The translations under genes and the position numbers were made by a program. From contig OY776328.1 in NCBI GenBank assembly GCA_963675515.1, forward strand, positions 1,140,001 through 1,172,000: a stretch of DNA of 32,000 nucleotides, given 5' to 3'. Within the stretch, counting starts at the first letter, position 1. The number at the start of each line of letters is the position of its first letter. Below, one piece after another: positions 6,866 to 29,857 of this stretch. Below the pieces are notes generated by a model. It worked only from the letters and a program-made list of their open reading frames with translations, ran no database searches and was not told the origin of the DNA. Source of the stretch: Coprobacillaceae bacterium. Lineage in GTDB: Bacteria > Bacillota_I > Bacilli_A > Erysipelotrichales > Coprobacillaceae.

Positions 6866-6961
6866 CTCTTATTAAGAATCGTTAGATGCAGATCGAAGAT
6901 ACGATGGCAACCCTCATTGAGAAGGTGCCCCACTAAGCAAGGTAAACTTGAACAATAAGAG
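6866..6961 (+). promoter_or_regulatory. SAM riboswitch (S-box / SAM-I-like aptamer) controlling metK
   Basis: P1 is CTCTTATT (6866-6873) paired with AATAAGAG (6954-6961). P2 is ATCGT...ACGAT. P3 is GGCAACC...GGTGCC, the conserved SAM-I core. P4 is CAAG-gtaaa-CTTG. The element sits directly upstream of metK and is followed by antiterminator and terminator alternatives. Confidence 0.72.
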
Positions 6962-9827: not shown

Positions 9828-11621
9828 ATGACATTAAGTGCGATCAACATTACAAAAACATTCCGCGATGGCGGGTCGGTCAATCAGGTATTTGAAAATC
9901 TGAGCATTTCTTTTCCTGCTGCGGGTTGTGTCTATCTGGTGGGGAAATCGGGCGGGGGCAAGTCGACATTGTTGAACATTTTAGGGGGCATCGAAAGTGT
10001 CGATTCGGGCATGGTCACCCTCAACAACCGGGATATTTCAAGGATTGGGGAATACCTGCGCGACCATGTGGCCTTCTTGCACCAGCGGGCCAATCTGCTT
10101 GGCTTTTTGAACGCCCGGGCCAATGTGGTTCTCGCCTGCGATCTTAAGCGGGTTTGTTTCGATGAAAAAAAGTACCGGGCACTTGTGGCTTCGATGGACC
10201 TTTGCGGCCATGACGAAAAGCCAATCAGCCAGCTCTCGTTTGGGATGTGCCAGCGTTTCGCTTTGATCCAGGCGCTTTTAAGCAAGGCCAGGATAATCCT
10301 GCTTGATGAGCCGACGGGAAGCGTCGACTTGCATAGCCGGTCCATCATCAAGAAGACGATCGAAAAGTATTCGAAGGATCGGCTGTTTGTGATCGCCACC
10401 CATGACTTGAAGCTCATTTCCAGCGGCATGGTTGTCGACCTCGACAATCTTGGCCGGACATATGATTTCAACAATGACAGATATGCCCTTGTAAAAAGAG
10501 GACCGCTGGCACCGTTCCGGTGGAATCTGTATTCATGGAAGCAGTTTTCAAGAGACTGGAAAAAGGCGGCGCTGATCGTGTCATCGCAGGCCATAATCGC
10601 CACAGCAATCGTCGTGATGCTGGTCCTTTTTTATCAGGGGGCAAGATATATCGATTCCGCCCGGGCTGAGTGTCCCTATAACCGGATAATCACAATCGAG
10701 TCCTCTAGCATCGCTTTTGAAAAGTCCTATCTCGACAAGCTTGTGGCTGATTATGGCGTAATTGGCTACAATCCTTATCTGGACTTGAATTCTTTGATCC
10801 TGAAAAACGACGATGACTATCTCGATGTGCAAAGTTTCCAGTGCAATCCCGATATTGCCCAGTCATCGATAAAGGCAGGCAGGATGATCGGGAATCCGGG
10901 TGAGATCCTCGTCAACCAGGCGCTTGTCGATCGGGGAGTTAATCTAGGCGAACAGATAGTGGGGACAGTTGCCCCGATCACACTTGTTGTCGTGGGGGTG
11001 ATCGCGGATGAGTTCAACTCCCTTCCTGGTGTCTATTACCAGGACGGCTATCTCCCCGTCGGGCTAAGTGGCGATATGACCAAGGTCAACCTGGTGGTGG
11101 AGGACTACACCCAAATCGCTAGACTGATTGATTCGCTAAAAGGGGACTTTTATGCTTACAGCGACTTTTTGACATTCAAAGAAAGCTATTCGAATCTTCT
11201 GGCCCTGGCGGGATTTGCCGGAGCTTTTTTCATTGTGGTCGCCCTGGTCATCGGGGTGATCCTTTATTCCCTGGTCATCTCAGCCACCTTTTACCAGCGC
11301 CATCAGGACAATTGTCTCTTGCTTATCCTTGGCTTGAATAAGCGCGGGTTGCTTGGAAACATGATTGGCGAGAGCCTGGCTGTGGGGATGGTTATTTCAA
11401 TGATGGGATCGTTTTTTGGGCTGATAGCGACCAACTTTGTCAAGGAGATGGACTTCATTCCCGACTTTCTAAAGACGCCCCTGAAACTTGATTTTACTAC
11501 GACGGCCGGACTGTTTTTGGCAATTGTCCTGGTCTATTCGCTGGTCGGTCTGGTCGCAACACTCAGCCAGTTAAATACGATCAGAAAACTCAAAATTTCA
11601 CAAGTTCTAAAGGAAGAATAA
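9828..11621 (+). CDS. ABC transporter, fused ATP-binding domain + FtsX/MacB-type permease (degenerate signature motif)
   Basis: Walker A is GKSGGGKST, Walker B is ILLDEPTGSVD and the H-loop is IATHD. The signature is LSFGMCQ instead of LSGGQ (10233-10253). The C-terminal half has TM1, a roughly 210-aa extracytoplasmic domain and TM2-4. The start is set at ATG 9828 (SD AAGGAG). Confidence 0.78.
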   Translation: MTLSAINITKTFRDGGSVNQVFENLSISFPAAGCVYLVGKSGGGKSTLLNILGGIESVDSGMVTLNNRDISRIGEYLRDHVAFLHQRANLLGFLNARANVVLACDLKRVCFDEKKYRALVASMDLCGHDEKPISQLSFGMCQRFALIQALLSKARIILLDEPTGSVDLHSRSIIKKTIEKYSKDRLFVIATHDLKLISSGMVVDLDNLGRTYDFNNDRYALVKRGPLAPFRWNLYSWKQFSRDWKKAALIVSSQAIIATAIVVMLVLFYQGARYIDSARAECPYNRIITIESSSIAFEKSYLDKLVADYGVIGYNPYLDLNSLILKNDDDYLDVQSFQCNPDIAQSSIKAGRMIGNPGEILVNQALVDRGVNLGEQIVGTVAPITLVVVGVIADEFNSLPGVYYQDGYLPVGLSGDMTKVNLVVEDYTQIARLIDSLKGDFYAYSDFLTFKESYSNLLALAGFAGAFFIVVALVIGVILYSLVISATFYQRHQDNCLLLILGLNKRGLLGNMIGESLAVGMVISMMGSFFGLIATNFVKEMDFIPDFLKTPLKLDFTTTAGLFLAIVLVYSLVGLVATLSQLNTIRKLKISQVLKEE

Positions 11622-13524: not shown

Positions 13525-13740
13525 GTAAAATCAGTGAAAAGGAATATTAGCTTGCGAAGTTATTTTAGAGAGATAGTGGTTGGTGGAAACTATCATGACT
13601 GACAGCGAACTCGCCTTGGAGATGCATGGATGAAGCAGTAGTCCGTGCCGTTGACTGCGTTAAAGTTTTGAGGTGCCAAGCAATTGGAACTAAGGTGGTA
13701 ACGCGCAAGGTCGTCCTTAGATGGATGGCCTTTTTTTGTT
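13525..13740 (+). promoter_or_regulatory. T-box leader (tRNA-Leu responsive) with terminator
   Basis: Stem-I elements are an AGAGA box (about 13566) and a GGTGGAAAC distal loop. The specifier region 'GAACTCGCCTTGG' carries the Leu codons CTC (13610-13612) and CTT (13615-13617). The T-box core is GGTGGTAACGCG (13694-13705). The terminator is AAGGTCGTCC/GGATGGCCTT followed by T7 (13707-13736). Confidence 0.82.
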
Positions 13741-16152: not shown

Positions 16153-16166
16153 TCTAATTGATTTTG

Positions 16167-16200
16167 AAGTGTGATCATGTTTCAGTGGTCACACTTTTTT
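16167..16200 (+). terminator. leuS terminator
   Basis: AAGTGTGATCA ... TGGTCACACTT hairpin (one G-U pair) followed by T6. Confidence 0.7.
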
Positions 16201-16278
16201 AAATTCTGGTGCAACTCCAGGTGGATTGAGAAATGAACAAAACTGTAGCACAATGTATTACAAAAAGAGGTGGTTTGC

Positions 16279-16496
16279 ATGAGTTTTTCAATCAGATTGA
16301 ACAAAGAAGAGGAAGAACTGTTTAAAAGCTATGTTAGGCTCCATGGTTACTCATTGTCGGAAGCCTTGAAAAAGGCTTTACTTGAAAAATCGAAGATGAT
16401 TATGATATAGCGTTGGCGAAGCAAGCCTACGAAGATTTCATCAAAGACCCGACAACCGTATCTCATGATGAGTTGAAAAGACAGCTTGGGCTATGA
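16279..16496 (+). pseudogene. RelB/DinJ-type (RHH, DUF6290-like) antitoxin, interrupted by a 1-nt frameshift
   Basis: Frame 1 gives MSFSIRLNKEEEELFKSYVRLHGYSLSEALKKALLEK, then runs out of frame to TAG 16408-16410. The shifted frame continues (I)EDDYDIALAKQAYEDFIKDPTTVSHDELKRQLGL and ends in an ATGA overlap with the toxin start. The break is at the A5 run 16385-16389. Confidence 0.72.
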
Positions 16497-16762
16497 GTTA
16501 TCAGGTCCGTTATAGCAAGAATGCAGTAAAACAGATCAAAATGATGGATTATTACACAAGGCTGATGATCATCAATTGGATTGAAAACAATCTGGTCGTT
16601 TGCGATAATCCCCGGTCCCAGGGAAAAGCTTTGACCGGAGAAACGAAAAACCAGCGGCGTTATCGGGTGGGGGATTACCGGATCCTTTGTGATTTGGTGG
16701 ATGACCAACTCATCATCCTGGTCATCAATGTGGGTCATAGAAGAGAAATTTACAAAAAGTGA
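16493..16762 (+). CDS. RelE/ParE-family type II toxin
   Basis: 89 aa with the family-typical C-terminal block 'YRVGDYRILCDLVDDQLIILVINVGHRREIY'. It has a 4-nt overlap with the upstream antitoxin frame. Confidence 0.8.
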   Translation: MSYQVRYSKNAVKQIKMMDYYTRLMIINWIENNLVVCDNPRSQGKALTGETKNQRRYRVGDYRILCDLVDDQLIILVINVGHRREIYKK

Positions 16763-16927
16763 TTTCTCTAATTTTGCTTCTCGATTATGTTTTTTGGCTC
16801 TGCTTTTGGATTTGGAATCCGTCTTGCCTGATTATTCGAGGTATTTAAAACCACGAATTAAATCCAAATTGAATTCCAATCAATTATAGACTTATGGAGT
16901 GTGAAATAGGCAAATATTAGAATACCG

Positions 16928-16936
16928 TGGTATAAT
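16928..16936 (+). promoter_or_regulatory. Extended -10 promoter element upstream of fic
   Basis: TGgTATAAT (16928-16936), followed by SD GGAGGG and ATG 16972. Confidence 0.4.
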
Positions 16937-16971
16937 GATTTCCAAGAGATTTAGTTAATGGAGGGACGTAA

Positions 16972-17577
16972 ATGATACTGGAAAATAAGCTGGTGATCAG
17001 CGATCCGGTTGAACTTGCCTTGATAGAGGGATGAGTGAGCAAGAAAAAAGCGCGGCGGCTATTAGATGAATCTGCACTTATCCAAGTGAATGTCGGGGCA
17101 TTTGAAAGTCTTCGCAAAATCCATCAATATTTGTTTGATGAAGTCTATGATTTTGCCGGCAAACTGCGAACCGTCAATATTGCGAAAGGAAATTTCCGTT
17201 TTGCCCCGGTGATGTATCTGCAAGCATCGCTGGAACATATCGAAAAGATGCCTCAAAGCACGTTTGATGAGATTGTTGAAAAATATGTCGAGATGAACAT
17301 CGCCCACCCATTCAGGGAAGGCAACGGGAGAGCGAAAAGAATTTGGCTTGATTCGATACTTGAAAAAGAACTTATGAGAGTTGTCGATTGGTCGCAGGTG
17401 AAAAAGGAAGAATATTCTCTTGCGGTGGAACGCGGTCCGATCAAGGATGTCGAAATCAAACACCTTCTTAAAAATGCGTTGACCGAAAAAATCGATGACC
17501 GTGATGTGTTCATGAAAGGCATCGATGCGAGTTACTTCTACGAAGGATACTACGCCTATGCGACGTCGGAATTGTGA
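16972..17577 (+). pseudogene. fic: Class-III Fic (AMPylase-type Fido) protein interrupted by an in-frame TGA at codon 21
   Basis: ATG 16972 (strong SD) encodes MILENKLVISDPVELALIEG, then TGA at 17032-17034. The same frame continues from GTG 17035 for 180 aa. That part has the Fic motif HPFREGNGR (17305-17331) and the C-terminal inhibitory-helix motif SYFYEG (17530-17547). Confidence 0.75.
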
Positions 17578-23094: not shown

Positions 23095-24197
23095 ATGTTA
23101 TCGGATTCAAAATTCGGTTTCGGCTTGATGCGGCTGCCCAAAAATGCGGACAATGAGATTGACATCGAGCAGGTAAAGGACATGGTCGATGGCTTCATGG
23201 CAGCGGCTTCAATTATTTCGACACCGCCTATGTGTACAAGGGATCGGAAGCGGCGATGAAAGCGGCGCTGGTCGACCGGTATCCTCGTGAAAGTTATACC
23301 ATCGCCAACAAGATCCACAAGATGGCCTTTGAAACAAAGAAGCAGATGGCTGATGTCTTCGAAGAGTCGCTGCGCCGCTGCGGGGTTGACTATTTCGATT
23401 TCTATCTTATCCATGCGATCAACCGAAAGCTTTACCGGGAATACCAGGACTATGGATGTTTCGAATATTGCCAGAAACAAAAAGAAGCGGGTAAGATTCG
23501 CTATCTTGGTTTCTCTTTCCATGACGACGCGAATCTTCTCGACCAGGTGCTTCGCGAGCATCCGGAGATTGATTTCGTCCAACTCCAGTTGAATTATCTC
23601 GACTGGGATAGCGGTGTGATCCAGGCCAGAAAAAACTACGAGGTGGCCTTGAAACACAACAAGCCTATTGTAGTAATGGAACCGATAAAAGGAGGCAACC
23701 TGGCCGCCTTGCCTGAGCACATCGAAAAGATCTTCAAGGAATACAATCCTGCAGCCTCGATGGCCTCATGGGCATTGCGATTTGTCGGCTCGCTTGAGGG
23801 TGTGATGACCATATTGTCAGGAATGTCTACTGCACAGCAGCTGGTTGACAACCTGGCGACAATGAATGATTTCCACCCAATCAGTGATCCGGAGGCCGCC
23901 CTGATAGAAAAGATCACCCAAGAATATCTGGCACTCAAGACAATCGACTGCACCGCCTGTCGTTATTGTGTCGCCGGGTGTCCAAAGAACATCCTGATTC
24001 CGGACCTTTTTGCCGCATACAACGACCAGATGGCCTATGGCAAGACGAGCCGGCCCAAGACTTTCTACAATGAACATACGGCCGATGGCCATGGCTTGGC
24101 GAGCGAGTGCATTGCCTGTCGCAAGTGCGAACATGTCTGCCCGCAGAAGCTGCCAATAGTCGAATTGCTCCAGAAGGTCGGCGCGACATTCGAATAG
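23095..24197 (+). pseudogene. Second aldo/keto reductase + 4Fe-4S domain oxidoreductase, interrupted by a 1-nt frameshift
   Basis: ATG 23095 (SD AAGGAGGG) gives MLSDSKFGFGLMRLPKNADNEIDIEQVKDMVDGFMAA, then goes out of frame to TGA 23257-23259. The shifted frame reads (G)FNYFDTAYVYKGSEAAMKAALVDRYPRESY... through to 24197, with C-terminal CTACRYCVAGCP and CIACRKCEHVCP. The break is at GCGG^C, about 23205-23207. Confidence 0.75.
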
Positions 24198-25914: not shown

Positions 25915-26427
25915 ATGAGTAAAACACTTATAGCTTATTTTTCAAGAACCGGGGAAAATTTCGTCCAAGGGGCAATCAAAGGTCTGGAAGTCGGCAATAC
26001 GGAAGTTGTCGCCAATAAGATCAAGGAGTTAACCGGAGGCGATCTGTTCAAGATCGATCCCGTGGTGCCTTATGATGACGATTACGATATCTGTTCCAAC
26101 CAGGCCCGTCAGGATTTTTTGAATCAGGAACGGCCTGAATTCAAGAATCCTCCAGACAACATCAGGGATTATGATACGGTCTATGTGCTTTTTCCAAACT
26201 ACTGGAATTCCATGCCGATGCATGTGTGGACCTTCCTGGAAAAATATGATTTTACAAACAAGACGATCAAGCCGCTGGTTACCCATATGGGCAGCCGCTT
26301 CGGTACAGCCGAGCTTGATATCGTGAAGCTTTGCAGTGGTGCCAGAGTGATGAAGGGGCTGGCGGTGCTGGGCGATCTGGTCAACGAATCCGACGCCAAA
26401 ATAAAAAGCTGGGTCGAGATGAATTAA
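25915..26427 (+). CDS. Flavodoxin-family protein
   Basis: The 'TLIAYFSRTGEN' N-terminal FMN-phosphate loop and 'VLFPNYWNSMP' are typical of the Flavodoxin_4 type. SD is AAGGAGGG. Confidence 0.8.
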   Translation: MSKTLIAYFSRTGENFVQGAIKGLEVGNTEVVANKIKELTGGDLFKIDPVVPYDDDYDICSNQARQDFLNQERPEFKNPPDNIRDYDTVYVLFPNYWNSMPMHVWTFLEKYDFTNKTIKPLVTHMGSRFGTAELDIVKLCSGARVMKGLAVLGDLVNESDAKIKSWVEMN

Positions 26428-26450
26428 GTGGAGGTAACTTCACTTTTTTT
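26426..26450 (+). terminator. Terminator after the flavodoxin gene
   Basis: Short AAGTG...CACTT hairpin followed by T7. Confidence 0.45.
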
Positions 26451-26520
26451 CATATGCGCAACAATTGTGGTTTCAAAAATAATTTTTAAAAAAAGTTTAA
26501 GTTCATTTAACAATTCCGGT

Positions 26521-26526
26521 GTATAA
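26521..26526 (+). promoter_or_regulatory. Putative -10 box of the four-gene cassette
   Basis: TATAAT in an AT-rich spacer 66 nt upstream of ATG 26593. No clear -35 is present. Confidence 0.3.
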
Positions 26527-26592
26527 TTGTCTTAGATGTAAAATCAACCTTCACCGGTTGAACAAGATTCCATTAAGACAAAGGAGCAATTT

Positions 26593-26775
26593 ATGGAACA
26601 AAGGCGTTACAAAGAATTATTGGAGATTTTAAGTGATTCCTCGCGTTGCGTGGCCGATCATATTGCCGCTAAAAACGAGCTGATGTTATGGTATCAGGGC
26701 GTCCTGGAAAAACATCCCAACTCAGGCGATCAATACCATCATGACAATCTCAAAACCGCTCTGGCCAAGAGATGA
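26593..26775 (+). CDS. Hypothetical 60-aa protein (cassette ORF-A)
   Basis: SD AAGGAG (26581-26586) lies 6 nt before the ATG. The stop overlaps the next ORF's start (ATGA). I recognise no family. Confidence 0.45.
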   Translation: MEQRRYKELLEILSDSSRCVADHIAAKNELMLWYQGVLEKHPNSGDQYHHDNLKTALAKR

Positions 26776-26945
26776 AAGGAGCCAGGGCAATCGACATCGA
26801 GGGCGACATCATCGATGTCTCGCTTGAAAGGCTGCTTGAAGATGCGATTGAATATTATGGGACTTTGATGGCCTATCCCGAAGTGTACATCCTCAACACT
26901 CCGATAGAGCAACTTTATCAGGATGTTTATCTTTACGAAAATTAG
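26772..26945 (+). CDS. Hypothetical 57-aa acidic protein (cassette ORF-B, below the ORF-track size cutoff)
   Basis: Hand translation gives MKGARAIDIEGDIIDVSLERLLEDAIEYYGTLMAYPEVYILNTPIEQLYQDVYLYEN. It has an ATGA overlap with ORF-A, and its TAG is immediately followed by ATG 26946. Confidence 0.4.
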   Translation: MKGARAIDIEGDIIDVSLERLLEDAIEYYGTLMAYPEVYILNTPIEQLYQDVYLYEN

Positions 26946-26963
26946 ATGATTGGAGGCTTTACT

Positions 26964-27155
26964 ATGTTTGATGATGATGACGGTTTTGATCTGGATATCG
27001 ATGAGTCTAGCGATGATTTCGATGATGAGTTCTCCAGAGATGACGATTTTGATAGCGACCGCGACTTTGATGATGAAACATCGGACGACTTTTCAGGCGA
27101 AGATGATACCGAAAAGACTTTCTACAAAGAGTTTATCAAAAGCCATTTTGATTGA
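26964..27155 (+). CDS. Hyperacidic 63-aa protein (cassette ORF-C; alternative start 26946)
   Basis: SD GGAGG (26952-26956) lies 7 nt before ATG 26964. The sequence MFDDDDGFDLDIDESSDDFDDEFSRDDDFDSDRDFDDETSDDFSGEDD... has 24 Asp and 6 Glu in 63 residues, with recurring D-D-F / F-D spacing. Confidence 0.5.
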   Translation: MFDDDDGFDLDIDESSDDFDDEFSRDDDFDSDRDFDDETSDDFSGEDDTEKTFYKEFIKSHFD

Positions 27156-27173
27156 TGGCTAGAGGAGGGACCC

Positions 27174-28562
27174 ATGGACAAGTACCAGGAAGAAAACAGT
27201 CGCATGGATGCCATATTGGACAATGACTATCTAGGTCAAAGTGACCTGCTCGCTATCCTGACCCGGCTGATTGTCGGTGGCGCCAGAAACAATTCCGCTT
27301 CAATGGGTTTTGGAAATATCCTCATCGATGCGCCCAGCCCACAGGGAAAAAGCGCGTTTGTCGCCTCACTAACTCATGTGATCAACGGCAGATATCTCAA
27401 CAACAGCGACTCGATGATGGGAAAAATCCTCGATGATGAAGAAAAGAAGATTCTCCATGCGATGTCGGCATTTTCTTTCGATGCCTATGAGCTGGATGTC
27501 CTTGGGCTTGGTGAATATGATATCCTGCTGGAAATGATATCGAGCGTATCCAGGGAGCTGGGATTCAGTGTCCCGGGCAGCCAAATTGAAAAAACCGCTC
27601 AGGATGTCGGAGCCTTGCTTGGCCGGATAAAAGACAAGGCCTATGTGCCCGAGGTGCTAAAAAGCCCGCTCCACAGTGTCAATCTCTATGGCGATATTCT
27701 GACCGGCCGCAACATCAAATCGAAACTGAACCAGGCGGTCGATGAAATCGCCAAACTGAATGACTATCCGCTGTTTGTGGTCACCATTGACAATATCGAC
27801 AAGTGTCCACCTGTAAGAGCCCTGCGGCTCCTGGGTTTTAGCGAACTATTCAGCAGGAATCCCAATCTGCTTTTTGTTTTCGCGGGCGATTATCGGATAC
27901 TAAAACAGAACATCCAGACGTTTTATGGCAATGGTTTCCTGGTGGAAAAGTTTTTAAAGCGCCAGTTCGATTTTTTCTGTCGGCTAAAAGAACCACCATT
28001 GCCTGGATACTGCCGCTTCATTCTCGAGCAATTCGGCATCGAAGACAAGGATATGGTCTTGGTGATTTCAAGCATTGGCGACTATTACAGCTTCGATCTT
28101 GACGGGATCCACAGTCTGGCAAGACAACTGGCCCTGGTTTGGGTGGATTTGAATGGACCGGACGGACCGGAATCGGAAGAGACTTTCTTCAGGCGCTTTT
28201 TTCTGGCTATGACACTGGGACTCAAAAACAAGGACCGGGAACTGTTGCGGGACTTTCTCCTTGGCATTTGGCCGCCAGAACAGATTGTTGCCATCTTTGA
28301 AAATTCGCCCGAAATTCTATCTCAAGTCAAGCGTGGCTGCTTACAAAAGGAATTGACAGACACTGTGGTATTGGAGCTTGTCAGGGAATGGTACTGGGAT
28401 TTTTTGGCTGCCCTGGATAAGGTGGGTCTTTATGATCATTTTCCTGGTGGAGCAAACGAAAAAGACCTGGCAGTTCTGGTTGAAAAGCTCAGGACCATGG
28501 AAACCAAGGGCTTTGAGGGCATCAGGTGGGGTTCGGTGCTTGGCATCTTGCATTTTGATTGA
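27174..28562 (+). CDS. KAP-family P-loop NTPase-like protein (cassette ORF-D), no TM insertion
   Basis: SD is GGAGGG. The N-terminal block is 'DYLGQSDLLAILTRLI'. The P-loop is APSPQGKS (27330-27353). The Walker-B/KAP block is 'LFVVTIDNIDKCPPVRALRLL' (27774-27806). It is followed by 'LLFVFAGDYRILKQNI...FLVEKFLKRQFDFFCRL', matching KAP-domain conserved blocks as I recall them. Confidence 0.65.
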   Translation: MDKYQEENSRMDAILDNDYLGQSDLLAILTRLIVGGARNNSASMGFGNILIDAPSPQGKSAFVASLTHVINGRYLNNSDSMMGKILDDEEKKILHAMSAFSFDAYELDVLGLGEYDILLEMISSVSRELGFSVPGSQIEKTAQDVGALLGRIKDKAYVPEVLKSPLHSVNLYGDILTGRNIKSKLNQAVDEIAKLNDYPLFVVTIDNIDKCPPVRALRLLGFSELFSRNPNLLFVFAGDYRILKQNIQTFYGNGFLVEKFLKRQFDFFCRLKEPPLPGYCRFILEQFGIEDKDMVLVISSIGDYYSFDLDGIHSLARQLALVWVDLNGPDGPESEETFFRRFFLAMTLGLKNKDRELLRDFLLGIWPPEQIVAIFENSPEILSQVKRGCLQKELTDTVVLELVREWYWDFLAALDKVGLYDHFPGGANEKDLAVLVEKLRTMETKGFEGIRWGSVLGILHFD

Positions 28563-28605
28563 AAAAAAGGATCAGTCGCAGTAAAGTGCAGACTGGTCCT
28601 TTTTT
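28562..28605. terminator. Bidirectional terminator shared by the cassette and the serpin gene
   Basis: A7, GGATCAGTCGCA-gtaaag-TGCAGACTGGTCC (one bulge, one G-U pair), T6. The hairpin overlaps the serpin stop codon. Confidence 0.75.
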
Positions 28606-29857
28606 AAAGATTGTTTATCGCTCCCATGAACACGGGAACTTCCTGATCGAAATCGTAGATCATATAGACAAACGGGCGGTCCAGGATGACCTCCTTTTCA
28701 TTGACGATGATCGAGGTATCGACCATTTCGACGATTGTCACAGCTCCGGCCTTGGTGCCGATCTCATTGAGTTCGATGGCACAATTGTGCAGGATGCGGC
28801 TGATGAAAAGCGCGCCTGAGGCGGTGTCCGCCATTTTGGAGAAGTCGGCGATTTCACTGAAGGCGTCGACCATGCCTAGTCCCACAAGCAGCTCGCTCAA
28901 CTCCTTCTTGTAGTCATATTTGAACTTTGGAGTGGCGGTGGTGACCGGAACGCTCTGGGGATTGGTTATAAGCTCGTGGAGACTGCTGGCATCAAGCTTA
29001 TCGAGATATGAGTCGATGTCGCCTTTTGGCAGCAGTGCCACAAAGCCATAGCGTTCATCCTGGTATTTCTTCACAAAACCGGTGACCAGTTCGTCCTCGA
29101 GATACAGACTTTCATCACTGTGAAGGAATTCGACATCGCTCTTGGCAGCGTCTGAATTGTTGAAGGTGCCGTTGTAGACCATATCGCTGGTATATTCGAC
29201 TGCCCACTTGTCCTCGAACAGGACCGTATTTATCAGATAGATAACGGCTTCCACCGGAACCTGGTCGAGTGCCTCTTTTATCATGCCCTTGGTATGGTAA
29301 TCGATATAGTTGTTGATGTCTTCCAGGGTGGTGCTGTCGAATGGGGCCTGGTAGCCATCTGCCTGATAGTAGGTAGCGTTCATTTTCAAAAAATCAGGGT
29401 TGATGGTCAGGCGGTCCTGGTCATCGCGGATCCAGATCGAGTTGGATATTTCGACAACCTGGTCGTCTTCCAGGGAATCGAGATAGTTTTTCAAATCATT
29501 GTTCAGATCGTCCACTGGCATGTCGAGCAGCAGCTTTTCCATCTGTTCCAGGGTGTTCCCTGCGGCCCCATTTTCACACATGGCCAATGCCAGGGTGATA
29601 GACAGGGGTGAGATCAGGATGTTTTCCTGGTTAGTGTAGATGCTCTTGAATAGCTGGCTGGAAAGACGGGTGAATCCAATCCCGAAATCATCGCCGGTGG
29701 GCTCTGTCGTCACAGTGTCGCCACTGACACCTTCCATCAGATCTTTAGCCAAGATGTTAAGGGTTGGAGTATCGTCCTTGGCAAAGTAGTTGAAAACAAA
29801 GACAAATGCCAGGATCGCGCCGATAAATACGATAAATATTTTAGCTGTCAGTTTCAT
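28604..29857 (-). CDS. Serpin-family protease inhibitor with N-terminal membrane anchor/signal
   Basis: 417 aa. The N-terminal hydrophobic helix is KIFIVFIGAILAFVFVFNYF. 'ENILISPLSITLALAMCENGAAGNT' is the canonical serpin N-terminal block. The hinge and reactive-centre loop 'EIGTKAGAVTIVEMVDTS...' is followed by 'LDRPFVYMI'. SD is AGGTGA. Confidence 0.85.
   Translation of the reverse strand: MKLTAKIFIVFIGAILAFVFVFNYFAKDDTPTLNILAKDLMEGVSGDTVTTEPTGDDFGIGFTRLSSQLFKSIYTNQENILISPLSITLALAMCENGAAGNTLEQMEKLLLDMPVDDLNNDLKNYLDSLEDDQVVEISNSIWIRDDQDRLTINPDFLKMNATYYQADGYQAPFDSTTLEDINNYIDYHTKGMIKEALDQVPVEAVIYLINTVLFEDKWAVEYTSDMVYNGTFNNSDAAKSDVEFLHSDESLYLEDELVTGFVKKYQDERYGFVALLPKGDIDSYLDKLDASSLHELITNPQSVPVTTATPKFKYDYKKELSELLVGLGMVDAFSEIADFSKMADTASGALFISRILHNCAIELNEIGTKAGAVTIVEMVDTSIIVNEKEVILDRPFVYMIYDFDQEVPVFMGAINNL

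Follow-up and report, generated by a model that had tools for sequence, protein, structure and literature searches.

The cassette described here lies in a 32,000-nucleotide stretch from a Coprobacillaceae bacterium (GenBank assembly GCA_963675515.1, contig OY776328.1, positions 1,140,001 to 1,172,000 of the forward strand). We refer to the whole stretch as the window, and coordinates are counted from its first letter. The cassette consists of three co-oriented genes, designated AB, C and D, of which D encodes an NTPase of the KAP family and AB and C encode small acidic proteins. A sequence-only reading of this DNA had described four genes, ORF-A to ORF-D (ORF, open reading frame), at 26593–26775 (60 amino acids, aa), 26772–26945 (57 aa), 26946–27155 (69 aa) and 27174–28562 (462 aa). 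All four frames are found at these positions. The anatomy, however, had to be revised to three genes: ORF-A and ORF-B are the halves of one 117-aa gene, which is intact in ten relatives. The features of the cassette are as follows (SD, Shine–Dalgarno site).

26426–26452, + strand: intrinsic terminator of the upstream flavodoxin gene, an 8-bp stem with a T-run (hairpin at 26426–26445)
26489–26527, + strand: putative promoter/operator block AAAAAGTTTAAGTTCATTTAACAATTCCGGTGTATAAT, nearly invariant in six loci
26534–26592, + strand: 5′ leader of ~58 nt, with a hairpin TCAACC/GGTTGA at 26544–26561 and the SD AAGGAG at 26580–26585
26593–26945, + strand: gene AB, encoding a 117-aa acidic helical orphan, delimited by ungapped alignment to intact relatives
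26964–27155, + strand: gene C, encoding a 63-aa hyperacidic peptide, delimited by alignment with six orthologues
27174–28562, + strand: gene D (462 aa), encoding a KAP-family P-loop NTPase that is soluble and has a C-terminal region made up of helices only (Pfam PF07693, AlphaFold2 model, Foldseek)
27330–27353, + strand: Walker A motif of D, APSPQGKS (residues 53–60), from the family alignment
27645–27719, + strand: near-invariant block VPEVLKSPLHSVNLYGDILTGRNIK of D (residues 158–182), located by invariant columns in the insert between Walker A and Walker B
27774–27806, + strand: Walker B motif of D, FVVTIDNIDKC (residues 201–211), from the family alignment
28044–28559, + strand: fast-evolving helical C-terminal region of D (residues 291–462), 22–32% identical to orthologues and mostly confident in the model
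28563–28605, both strands: bidirectional intrinsic terminator common to D and the convergent serpin gene, from RNA folding, the hairpin being preceded by an A-run and followed by a T-run

The revision of the AB gene relies on ten related loci (L001–L011), taken from the contigs of the D homologue clusters, one species-representative metagenome-assembled genome and one contig of the European Nucleotide Archive (ENA). Every carrier locus was ascertained through D or AB, and the counts given here cover carriers only. All ten loci have an uninterrupted 117-aa ORF at the position of A plus B, and the concatenated A+B sequence aligns with these ORFs with zero gaps at 82–85% identity. In a DNA alignment of the A/B junction, GGCC-AAGAGATGAAAGG of the window stands against GCCAAGAAAATGCAGGG of the orthologues, one base being missing; the 1-nt deletion, which splits the window gene into ORF-A and ORF-B, lies at about 26766–26771. 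The ATGA overlap at 26772–26775 exists because the window carries this deletion relative to all orthologues, and the translational coupling of A and B that had been read from it is a product of the deletion.

A second 1-nt deletion was detected when other window genes were compared with their orthologues as a control. It changes GGCCAG to GGCAG near 23200 (break 23200–23208) in a conserved gene.

23095–24197: aldo-keto-reductase/4Fe–4S gene, split into two frames by the deletion; 367 aa in relatives

Both deletions affect short homopolymer runs in well-conserved genes and are at most 3.6 kb apart, which points to an indel-prone assembly or to recent or ongoing pseudogenisation. The AB break is thus likely an assembly error or a recent mutation, as judged from the alignments. 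Programmed frameshifting at the A/B junction was considered and rejected, as there is no slippery heptamer and the unrelated second deletion is nearby.

A native four-gene design, with A and B as separate functional, translationally coupled mini-proteins, would find some support in the stop/start overlap, which would permit termination–reinitiation, in the fact that both halves are open and conserved, and in Met61 of AB, which is invariant family-wide, the distant P0014 and L016 sequences included. We nevertheless regard this design as hardly credible, given the single uninterrupted ORF in 10/10 other loci, the one missing base that makes up the whole difference of the window, and the second deletion that breaks the nearby reductase gene. 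A 57-aa protein (P0015) resembled a free-standing B half. It was rejected as evidence for an autonomous B: the protein is truncated, its contig (L016, 603 bp) is chimeric, and homology extends upstream of its called Met. On L016 the peptide ‘SGDWSSDVCSSDL’ is encoded at both contig ends, once per strand, giving an inverted terminal repeat which we take to be an assembly artefact. With such artefactual ends P0015 is a truncated gene call.

The AB protein is acidic, with a net charge of −13 in the intact form of L002 and of −9 in the B half, and has no hydrophobic segment. Its AlphaFold2 model is mostly helical and of moderate confidence (predicted local distance difference test score, pLDDT, of 70). 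No match was found in Pfam, NCBIfam, PADLOC or PHROGs; a sequence-profile search of the PDB returned nothing meaningful, and a fold search of the PDB and BFVD likewise gave no match.

The start of gene C also differs from that assumed for ORF-C. Every C orthologue starts at the position of Met7 of the window frame, which is ATG 26964. This codon lies 18 nt past the AB stop, and the spacer contains an SD (GGAGG, 26950–26954), as in the relatives. Since the relatives all start there and GGAGG serves that start, translation of C most likely begins at ATG 26964 and not at 26946. The TAG abutting ATG 26946, which had been taken for a further coupling, is probably coincidental: the relatives start at Met7, 16–20 nt after the AB stop. 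Both small acidic products proposed earlier are indeed strongly acidic, the B half as given above and C with 30 Asp/Glu among its 63 residues (48%) and a net charge of −25. The conserved motifs of C are D[LF]DIDESS, RD[FY]DDE and Y.EF. Searches of Pfam, NCBIfam, PADLOC, PHROG and the PDB with C gave no match. Strains with otherwise 99–100% identical AB, C and D differ in the poly-Asp tract of C, which ranges from 6 to 9 residues through the copy number of (GAT)n; the window encodes its poly-Asp with only (GAT)3GAC.

L003:4958–5146, L004:511–696, L006:4959–5141 and L010:638–817: C orthologues with variable poly-Asp (in-frame triplet-repeat length polymorphism)

The boundaries of the transcription unit agree with the sequence-only reading, which had noted a flavodoxin terminator ahead of the unit, a TATAAT box of its own, SD sites for ORF-C and ORF-D and a terminal bidirectional hairpin. 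The stem-loop of the flavodoxin terminator is kept in L002, L003 and L011, and this terminator is the 5′ limit of the AB-C-D unit. The −10 box TATAAT (26522–26527) lies within a block of ~39 nt, AAAAGTTTAAGTT.ATTTAA...TCC...GTATAAT, which is near-constant in six loci, the rest of the intergenic DNA there being variable. The ~33 nt directly 5′ of the −10 box (26489–26521, AAAAGTTTAAGTT.ATTTAAC.ATTCC) are almost invariant in these loci. They match a sigma-70 −35 element poorly, and the TATAAT box was left unscored by a generic sigma-70 scan; the motif of the block occurs once in the 32-kb window. The invariant stretch may be a regulator site or operator, or an alternative-sigma element. The leader hairpin is present in the window, L002, L003 and L010, with a weak consensus structure (−2.55 kcal/mol), and Rfam gave no match anywhere in the cassette. 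The AB–C and C–D spacers measure 16–20 nt in five lineages and contain an SD site in each. At the 3′ end, the hairpin at 28563–28605 folds stably on both strands (−24.9 kcal/mol on the + strand, −18.8 kcal/mol on the − strand). Taken together, AB-C-D is predicted to be a self-contained co-oriented operon with short spacers and its own conserved promoter and terminator.

The earlier assignment of ORF-D as a KAP-family P-loop NTPase holds. D scores above the gathering threshold of the Pfam family KAP_NTPase (PF07693; 26.7 bits versus 20, E 4.2e-6, residues 58–263), the same family is found in the precomputed annotation of six D relatives, and its Walker B follows the KAP pattern. The family consensus of this motif, hhhIID[DNA][IL]D[KR]C, is a form of the KAP-type DDxDRC, with IIDDIDRC in relatives and TIDNIDKC in the window; D206, D209 and C211 are invariant, distant members of the candidate defence family PDC-S20 included. 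For Walker A, relatives have APWG[YW]GKS and the PDC-S20 outgroups WGTGKT. The window keeps the GKS, which is invariant across the D family, and the W-G that is a hallmark of KAP proteins is gone (window-private substitutions W55S and G56P). The near-invariant block in the insert has the family form VPEVLKSPLHSVNLY.D.LTGRNIK. Its conservation makes it a candidate docking site or a candidate interface for oligomerization or a partner.

The AlphaFold2 model of D (pLDDT 73.7, predicted TM-score 0.72) comprises an ASCE-type core, a low-confidence insert with pLDDT <50 at residues 128–181, and an all-helical C-terminal region. A transmembrane (TM) segment was not found: the maximum 19-residue Kyte–Doolittle hydropathy is 1.09, and the model has no TM-like helix. 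With an isoelectric point of 4.95 for D, all three proteins of the cassette are acidic. In a Foldseek search of the PDB with the D model the top match was RdrA of the RADAR system (E 1e-5), along with BrxC of the BREX system, followed by PCH-2, ClpX, RFC and ORC. The RdrA and BrxC matches have E values of 1e-5 to 1e-2, a probability of 1.0 and 10–16% identity. As the TM-scores are merely 0.35–0.40, only the core fold is common to D and these proteins. A search of the PDB with the sequence profile of D gave nothing meaningful. As in the sequence-only reading, no effector domain was found in the operon proteins.

The deviations in the window copy of D, together with the AB frameshift, might mean that the operon is decaying or non-functional in this genome, whatever its ancestral role. 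Its P-loop departs from the family form, Walker B has DN instead of DD, and private changes at D sites that are otherwise invariant are most numerous in the window lineage (29/142, 20%, versus 7–16% in the others). However, the frames of D, C and the two AB halves all remain open over their full length, GKS, D206, D209 and C211 are kept, and the relative P0002 also deviates at the second Walker B position (DA). The surplus of private changes is modest, and a longer branch may suffice to explain it; the AB frameshift is possibly an assembly artefact. We therefore consider decay unlikely.

Evolutionary rates differ strongly within the cassette. The ratios of non-synonymous to synonymous substitution rates (dN/dS) were taken from the unsaturated pair L002–L003; between deep lineages dS of the flanking genes is >1 (saturated).

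Flanking genes: 68–92% identity to the window
AB: 82–85% identity to the window; dN/dS 0.07
C: 55–60% identity to the window; dN/dS 0.09
D, whole: 40–45% identity to the window; dN/dS 0.35
D, residues 1–290: about 50% identity to the window
D, residues 291–462: 22–32% identity to the window
D, N-terminal part: dN/dS 0.24
D, C-terminal part: dN/dS 0.50
Flavodoxin: dN/dS 0.08
PPK2: dN/dS 0.06
HTH (helix-turn-helix) protein: dN/dS 0.11
Serpin: dN/dS 0.13

The five flanking genes have dN/dS values of 0.06–0.13. AB, C and D are all genuine coding genes, with AB and C as constrained as housekeeping genes. This bears out the small ORFs as real genes, in spite of their lack of a known family. In a sliding-window analysis of D, dN/dS was lowest over residues 100–225 (0.08–0.13) and reached 0.45–0.69 over residues 300–450, and it exceeded 1 in no window. 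The helical C-terminal third of D thus evolves about five times faster than the neighbouring genes, while the NTPase core and the insert are strongly constrained. Conserved partners combined with a variable sensor are a pattern typical of NTPase immune sensors. The rate asymmetry of D would fit a variable sensor with conserved outputs, and relaxed constraint on a scaffold equally well.

The family is small. D homologues form six clusters among 5.8 billion proteins, with 40–45% identity, and AB forms three clusters in the same set. Profile searches with AB returned its own clade, a distant homologue of 109 aa and a truncated fragment, and nothing else; an exhaustive HMMER search of 1.84 billion representatives gave this one distant full-length homologue (P0014, E 1.5e-9). 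A scan of species-representative genomes with ORF-D of the window yielded zero relatives. Searches of viral contigs, phage genomes and plasmids with AB, P0014, its 511-aa neighbour (see below) and D returned just remote KAP relatives of 22–26% identity. AB and C are co-encoded with D in all D-family loci, which supports the sequence-only reading on this point. From these searches, the operon appears confined to one small Erysipelotrichaceae clade and to a single chromosomal site.

This site is constant in ten loci. Upstream of the cassette the carriers have LarB/LarC, the aldo-keto reductase, PPK2, a 207-aa protein (lipoprotein) and flavodoxin, and downstream the convergent serpin, Sm_multidrug_ex, GNAT, XRE-HTH and an aminotransferase. 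The rest of the window is core chromosome, including PntAB, ABC transporters, MetK, HPF, LeuRS and LarE/B/C. Other features of the window are:

6866–6961: SAM riboswitch upstream of metK
13525–13721: T-box leader upstream of leuS
17035–17577, + strand: Fic/DOC-domain protein of 180 aa, with a full-length match to PADLOC PDC-S04 (E 2.3e-90) and a weak SoFic match
28604–29857, − strand: serpin gene, convergent with the cassette

The SAM riboswitch and the T-box confirm the housekeeping neighbourhood. The window contains no integrase, transposase or tRNA gene, and the GC content of the cassette (0.43–0.49) is the same as that of its flanks. The Fic protein, ~9 kb upstream of the cassette and after LeuRS, is the sole defence candidate nearby. 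Between leuS and the Fic gene, ~880 bp (16153–17034) contain no ORF of at least 100 aa and gave no Rfam or tRNA match. A functional link to the serpin was considered and rejected: the gene is convergent, it is disrupted in L011 with AB-C-D intact, and it has no PADLOC match. In L011, a long-read ENA contig, the serpin (10011–11269) is seen as tblastn fragments in different frames, either a pseudogene or the outcome of assembly indels.

The sequence-only reading had placed the cassette in an accessory stretch next to a serpin. The serpin does adjoin it, but ten syntenic loci, the native GC content and the lack of mobility genes speak against an accessory stretch. A strictly syntenic core locus, named in that reading as an observation that would tell against it, is what we find across the ten carriers, all retrieved through D or AB. 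Pairwise relationships of D parallel those of the flanks, L002 and L003 being closest in both. This congruence, together with flank dS >1 between deep lineages, argues for long vertical inheritance of the cassette. A metagenome scan with the flanking flavodoxin, in search of the backbone without the cassette, gave only relatives of ≤60% identity with no shared synteny.

The distant AB homologue P0014 occurs in a different setting. It is encoded on two AT-rich contigs, L014 (103–4723) and L015, in the order 84-aa protein, 52-aa zinc ribbon, AB-like 109-aa protein, 511-aa acid-rich orphan, 167-aa protein and 317-aa protein, followed by a Tn916-type excisionase (Pfam E 1.7e-9) and an ORF resembling an integrase N-terminus. 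There is no KAP NTPase at this locus, and the neighbours of P0014 have no match in Pfam, PADLOC or PHROG. The 511-aa neighbour was rejected as a relative of C or D (hhalign probability about 0.1%). This all-orphan cassette forms an uncharacterised cargo module within an integrative element. Since the partners of P0014 differ from C and D, the AB fold seems to be a module that pairs with different partners, once in a mobile setting. The mobile-element context is a weak pointer toward conflict biology.

What AB-C-D does can be approached through its affinities. With less than even confidence, we read it as a vertically retained NTPase-switch conflict module, because of the kinship of D with PDC-S20, PifA and QatA, its structural similarity to RdrA and BrxC and its fast evolution. 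By analogy to the anti-phage or conflict proteins PifA, QatA, PDC-S20, the single-gene KAP defences and RdrA-like rings, D would be an oligomerizing ATP-driven switch. Its variable C-terminal helical domain could sense an invader-derived cue, and AB and C would be the invariant output or regulatory parts. C might act as a polyanionic nucleic-acid-mimicking inhibitor or bait, and AB as an adaptor or effector whose target in the cell would be conserved. The defence or toxin–antidote role proposed in the sequence-only reading is circumstantial in the same way, as it rests on family affinity, structural similarity and fast D evolution.

Several observations weigh against a conflict module. Synteny is of the housekeeping type in 10/10 carriers, with native GC content and without integrases or transposases, and defence genes are not typically inherited vertically for so long (flank dS >1). 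The viral contigs, phage genomes and plasmids searched yielded no family member. As no window of D has a dN/dS >1, relaxed constraint is an equally good explanation of its rapid evolution. The match to PDC-S20, itself an untested candidate, extends over only ~110 of 464 model positions, and the TM-scores of 0.35–0.40 would reflect a generic ASCE/AAA+-like core. With AB, C and D all acidic, a charge complementarity between C and D is not obvious. Moreover, AB, C and D contain no detected effector domain, and in the window copy AB is broken and both the P-loop and Walker B deviate from the canonical form.

Nearly as likely is a lineage-specific complex outside defence, serving some physiological process peculiar to the clade, with D as an ATP-dependent switch for assembly or regulation and the two small proteins as acidic cofactors. 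D would then evolve fast because a helical scaffold domain is weakly constrained. The strict synteny of ten loci, in which the cassette is surrounded by conserved metabolic genes (flank dS >1), the native GC content, the absence of mobility genes and of known defence genes adjacent to the cassette, and the lack of an effector domain all favour such a complex. So do the purifying selection on AB and C, which is as strong as that on PPK2 and flavodoxin, the dN/dS of D, which is never above 1, and the conserved promoter/operator block, which suggests integrated regulation. On the other hand, wherever D shows a detectable affinity in sequence or structure, it is to defence or candidate-defence ATPases, the distribution is extremely narrow, with seven D clusters and three AB clusters in 5.8 billion proteins, which makes an important housekeeping role unlikely, and the distant AB homologue occurs in a mobile-element context.

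The small-small-large gene order, the tight linkage and the operator-like conserved promoter are also reminiscent of a toxin–antitoxin (TA) or addiction module, in which AB (or D) would be growth-inhibitory, C a labile neutraliser and D a regulator or chaperone. C looks disordered and highly charged, as do many antitoxins, and the one complete genome carries AB in frameshifted form, as would be expected of a toxin. Yet this frameshift is possibly an assembly error, with a second one 3.5 kb away. No similarity to TA families was found in Pfam, NCBIfam or PADLOC, the acidity of AB and D leaves no simple charge neutralisation by C, and the locus is fixed and syntenic, whereas TA loci are usually mobile and patchy. 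A TA module is thus improbable.

Returning to the conflict module, its parts may be combined into a single picture: a chromosomally fixed immune module new to description, with a TM-less KAP NTPase ring, a diverging C-terminal sensor, a hyperacidic nucleic-acid mimic of variable (GAT)n length and a 117-aa effector or adaptor fold that is reused in a Tn916-like element. That all of these hold together is doubtful. KAP NTPases were only recently shown experimentally to act in phage defence. If AB-C-D is a conflict system, it would be a minimal one, in which a soluble KAP NTPase is joined by two small obligatory partners and an enzymatic effector is lacking. It would provide a tractable case for studying the regulation of KAP switches and the outputs that they drive, and would add two new small-protein families, one of them common to a mobile element. 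Otherwise it teaches caution, as KAP/PDC-type homology and orphan neighbours do not make a defence island. Caution also applies to gene calls, since a single-base indel can mimic a convincing pair of ‘coupled mini-genes’.

Among described systems, PDC-S20 is closest to D. All members of the D family have PDC-S20 as their best PADLOC match (E 1e-13 to 1e-25), over ~110 central positions only. D of the window does not match the model over its full length, and the alignment is limited to positions 171–278 of 464 (E 3.7e-13). The nearest outgroup proteins found with the family profile, P0011–P0013, are full-length PDC-S20 members with 17–19% identity to D; P0012 and P0013 span model positions 1–462 (E 1e-171 and 1e-165). 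One of the three, which lacks partners resembling AB or C, adjoins a giant N6-methyltransferase/SNF2-helicase gene. PDC systems, which are untested candidates, were defined through their embedding in BREX, DISARM or type I restriction–modification (RM) loci (bioRxiv 10.1101/2024.01.29.577857). The two families are alike in size (~460 aa), in Walker A (GK[ST]) and in the D..D.C pattern of Walker B. PDC-S20, however, is a single gene in BREX, DISARM or type I RM loci, whereas the D family has two small partners and metabolic neighbours. No RM or BREX genes occur in the 32-kb window, where the neighbours of the cassette are flavodoxin, serpin, PPK2 and LarBCE.

Single-gene KAP NTPases fused to C-terminal regions of unknown nature confer Walker B-dependent phage resistance (PMC13552941, PLoS Biol 2026). 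EF_KAP and its relatives resemble D in that the KAP domain is followed by ~170–320 aa without a recognisable domain, which are diverse in those proteins and in D are the fast-evolving part. In contrast to D, which has no TM helices, no recombinase nearby and two partners, EF_KAP has TM helices, acts alone and adjoins a serine recombinase.

PifA, encoded by the F plasmid and responsible for exclusion of T7, has ~720 aa. It shares with D the KAP-fold NTPase without TM helices. Since PifA is also TM-less (PMC13001434), the absence of TM segments in D is compatible with membership in the KAP family. D relatives give weak PADLOC matches to PifA (E 1e-9 to 4e-4), confined to the N-terminal ~230 model positions, and D of the window has no match at E values up to 1. 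Unlike D, PifA has no AB or C partners.

QatA is another KAP NTPase, with a size of ~600–650 aa. Like AB-C-D, the QatABCD system is a multi-gene operon that combines a KAP NTPase with a non-enzymatic partner, and D gives a weak match to QatA (E 1e-3). It differs in its QatB, QueC-like QatC and TatD-like QatD, of which the cassette has no homologues. Binding of DNA and assembly into heptamers or octamers have been described for QatA (PMC13279940).

Structurally, the D model comes closest to RdrA of RADAR and BrxC of BREX. Both are about twice the size of D, and their partners (RdrB deaminase; BrxB, PglZ and others) are absent from the cassette; no deaminase gene was found in the operon or its flanks. 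RdrA forms heptameric rings. In summary, the cassette is a KAP-NTPase module with two orphan partners that fits no described system, as the sequence-only reading had proposed: AB and C belong to no family, and D falls outside PDC-S20, PifA and QatA. D thus represents a new, isolated and very divergent TM-less subfamily of KAP NTPases, whose nearest kin are candidate defence genes.

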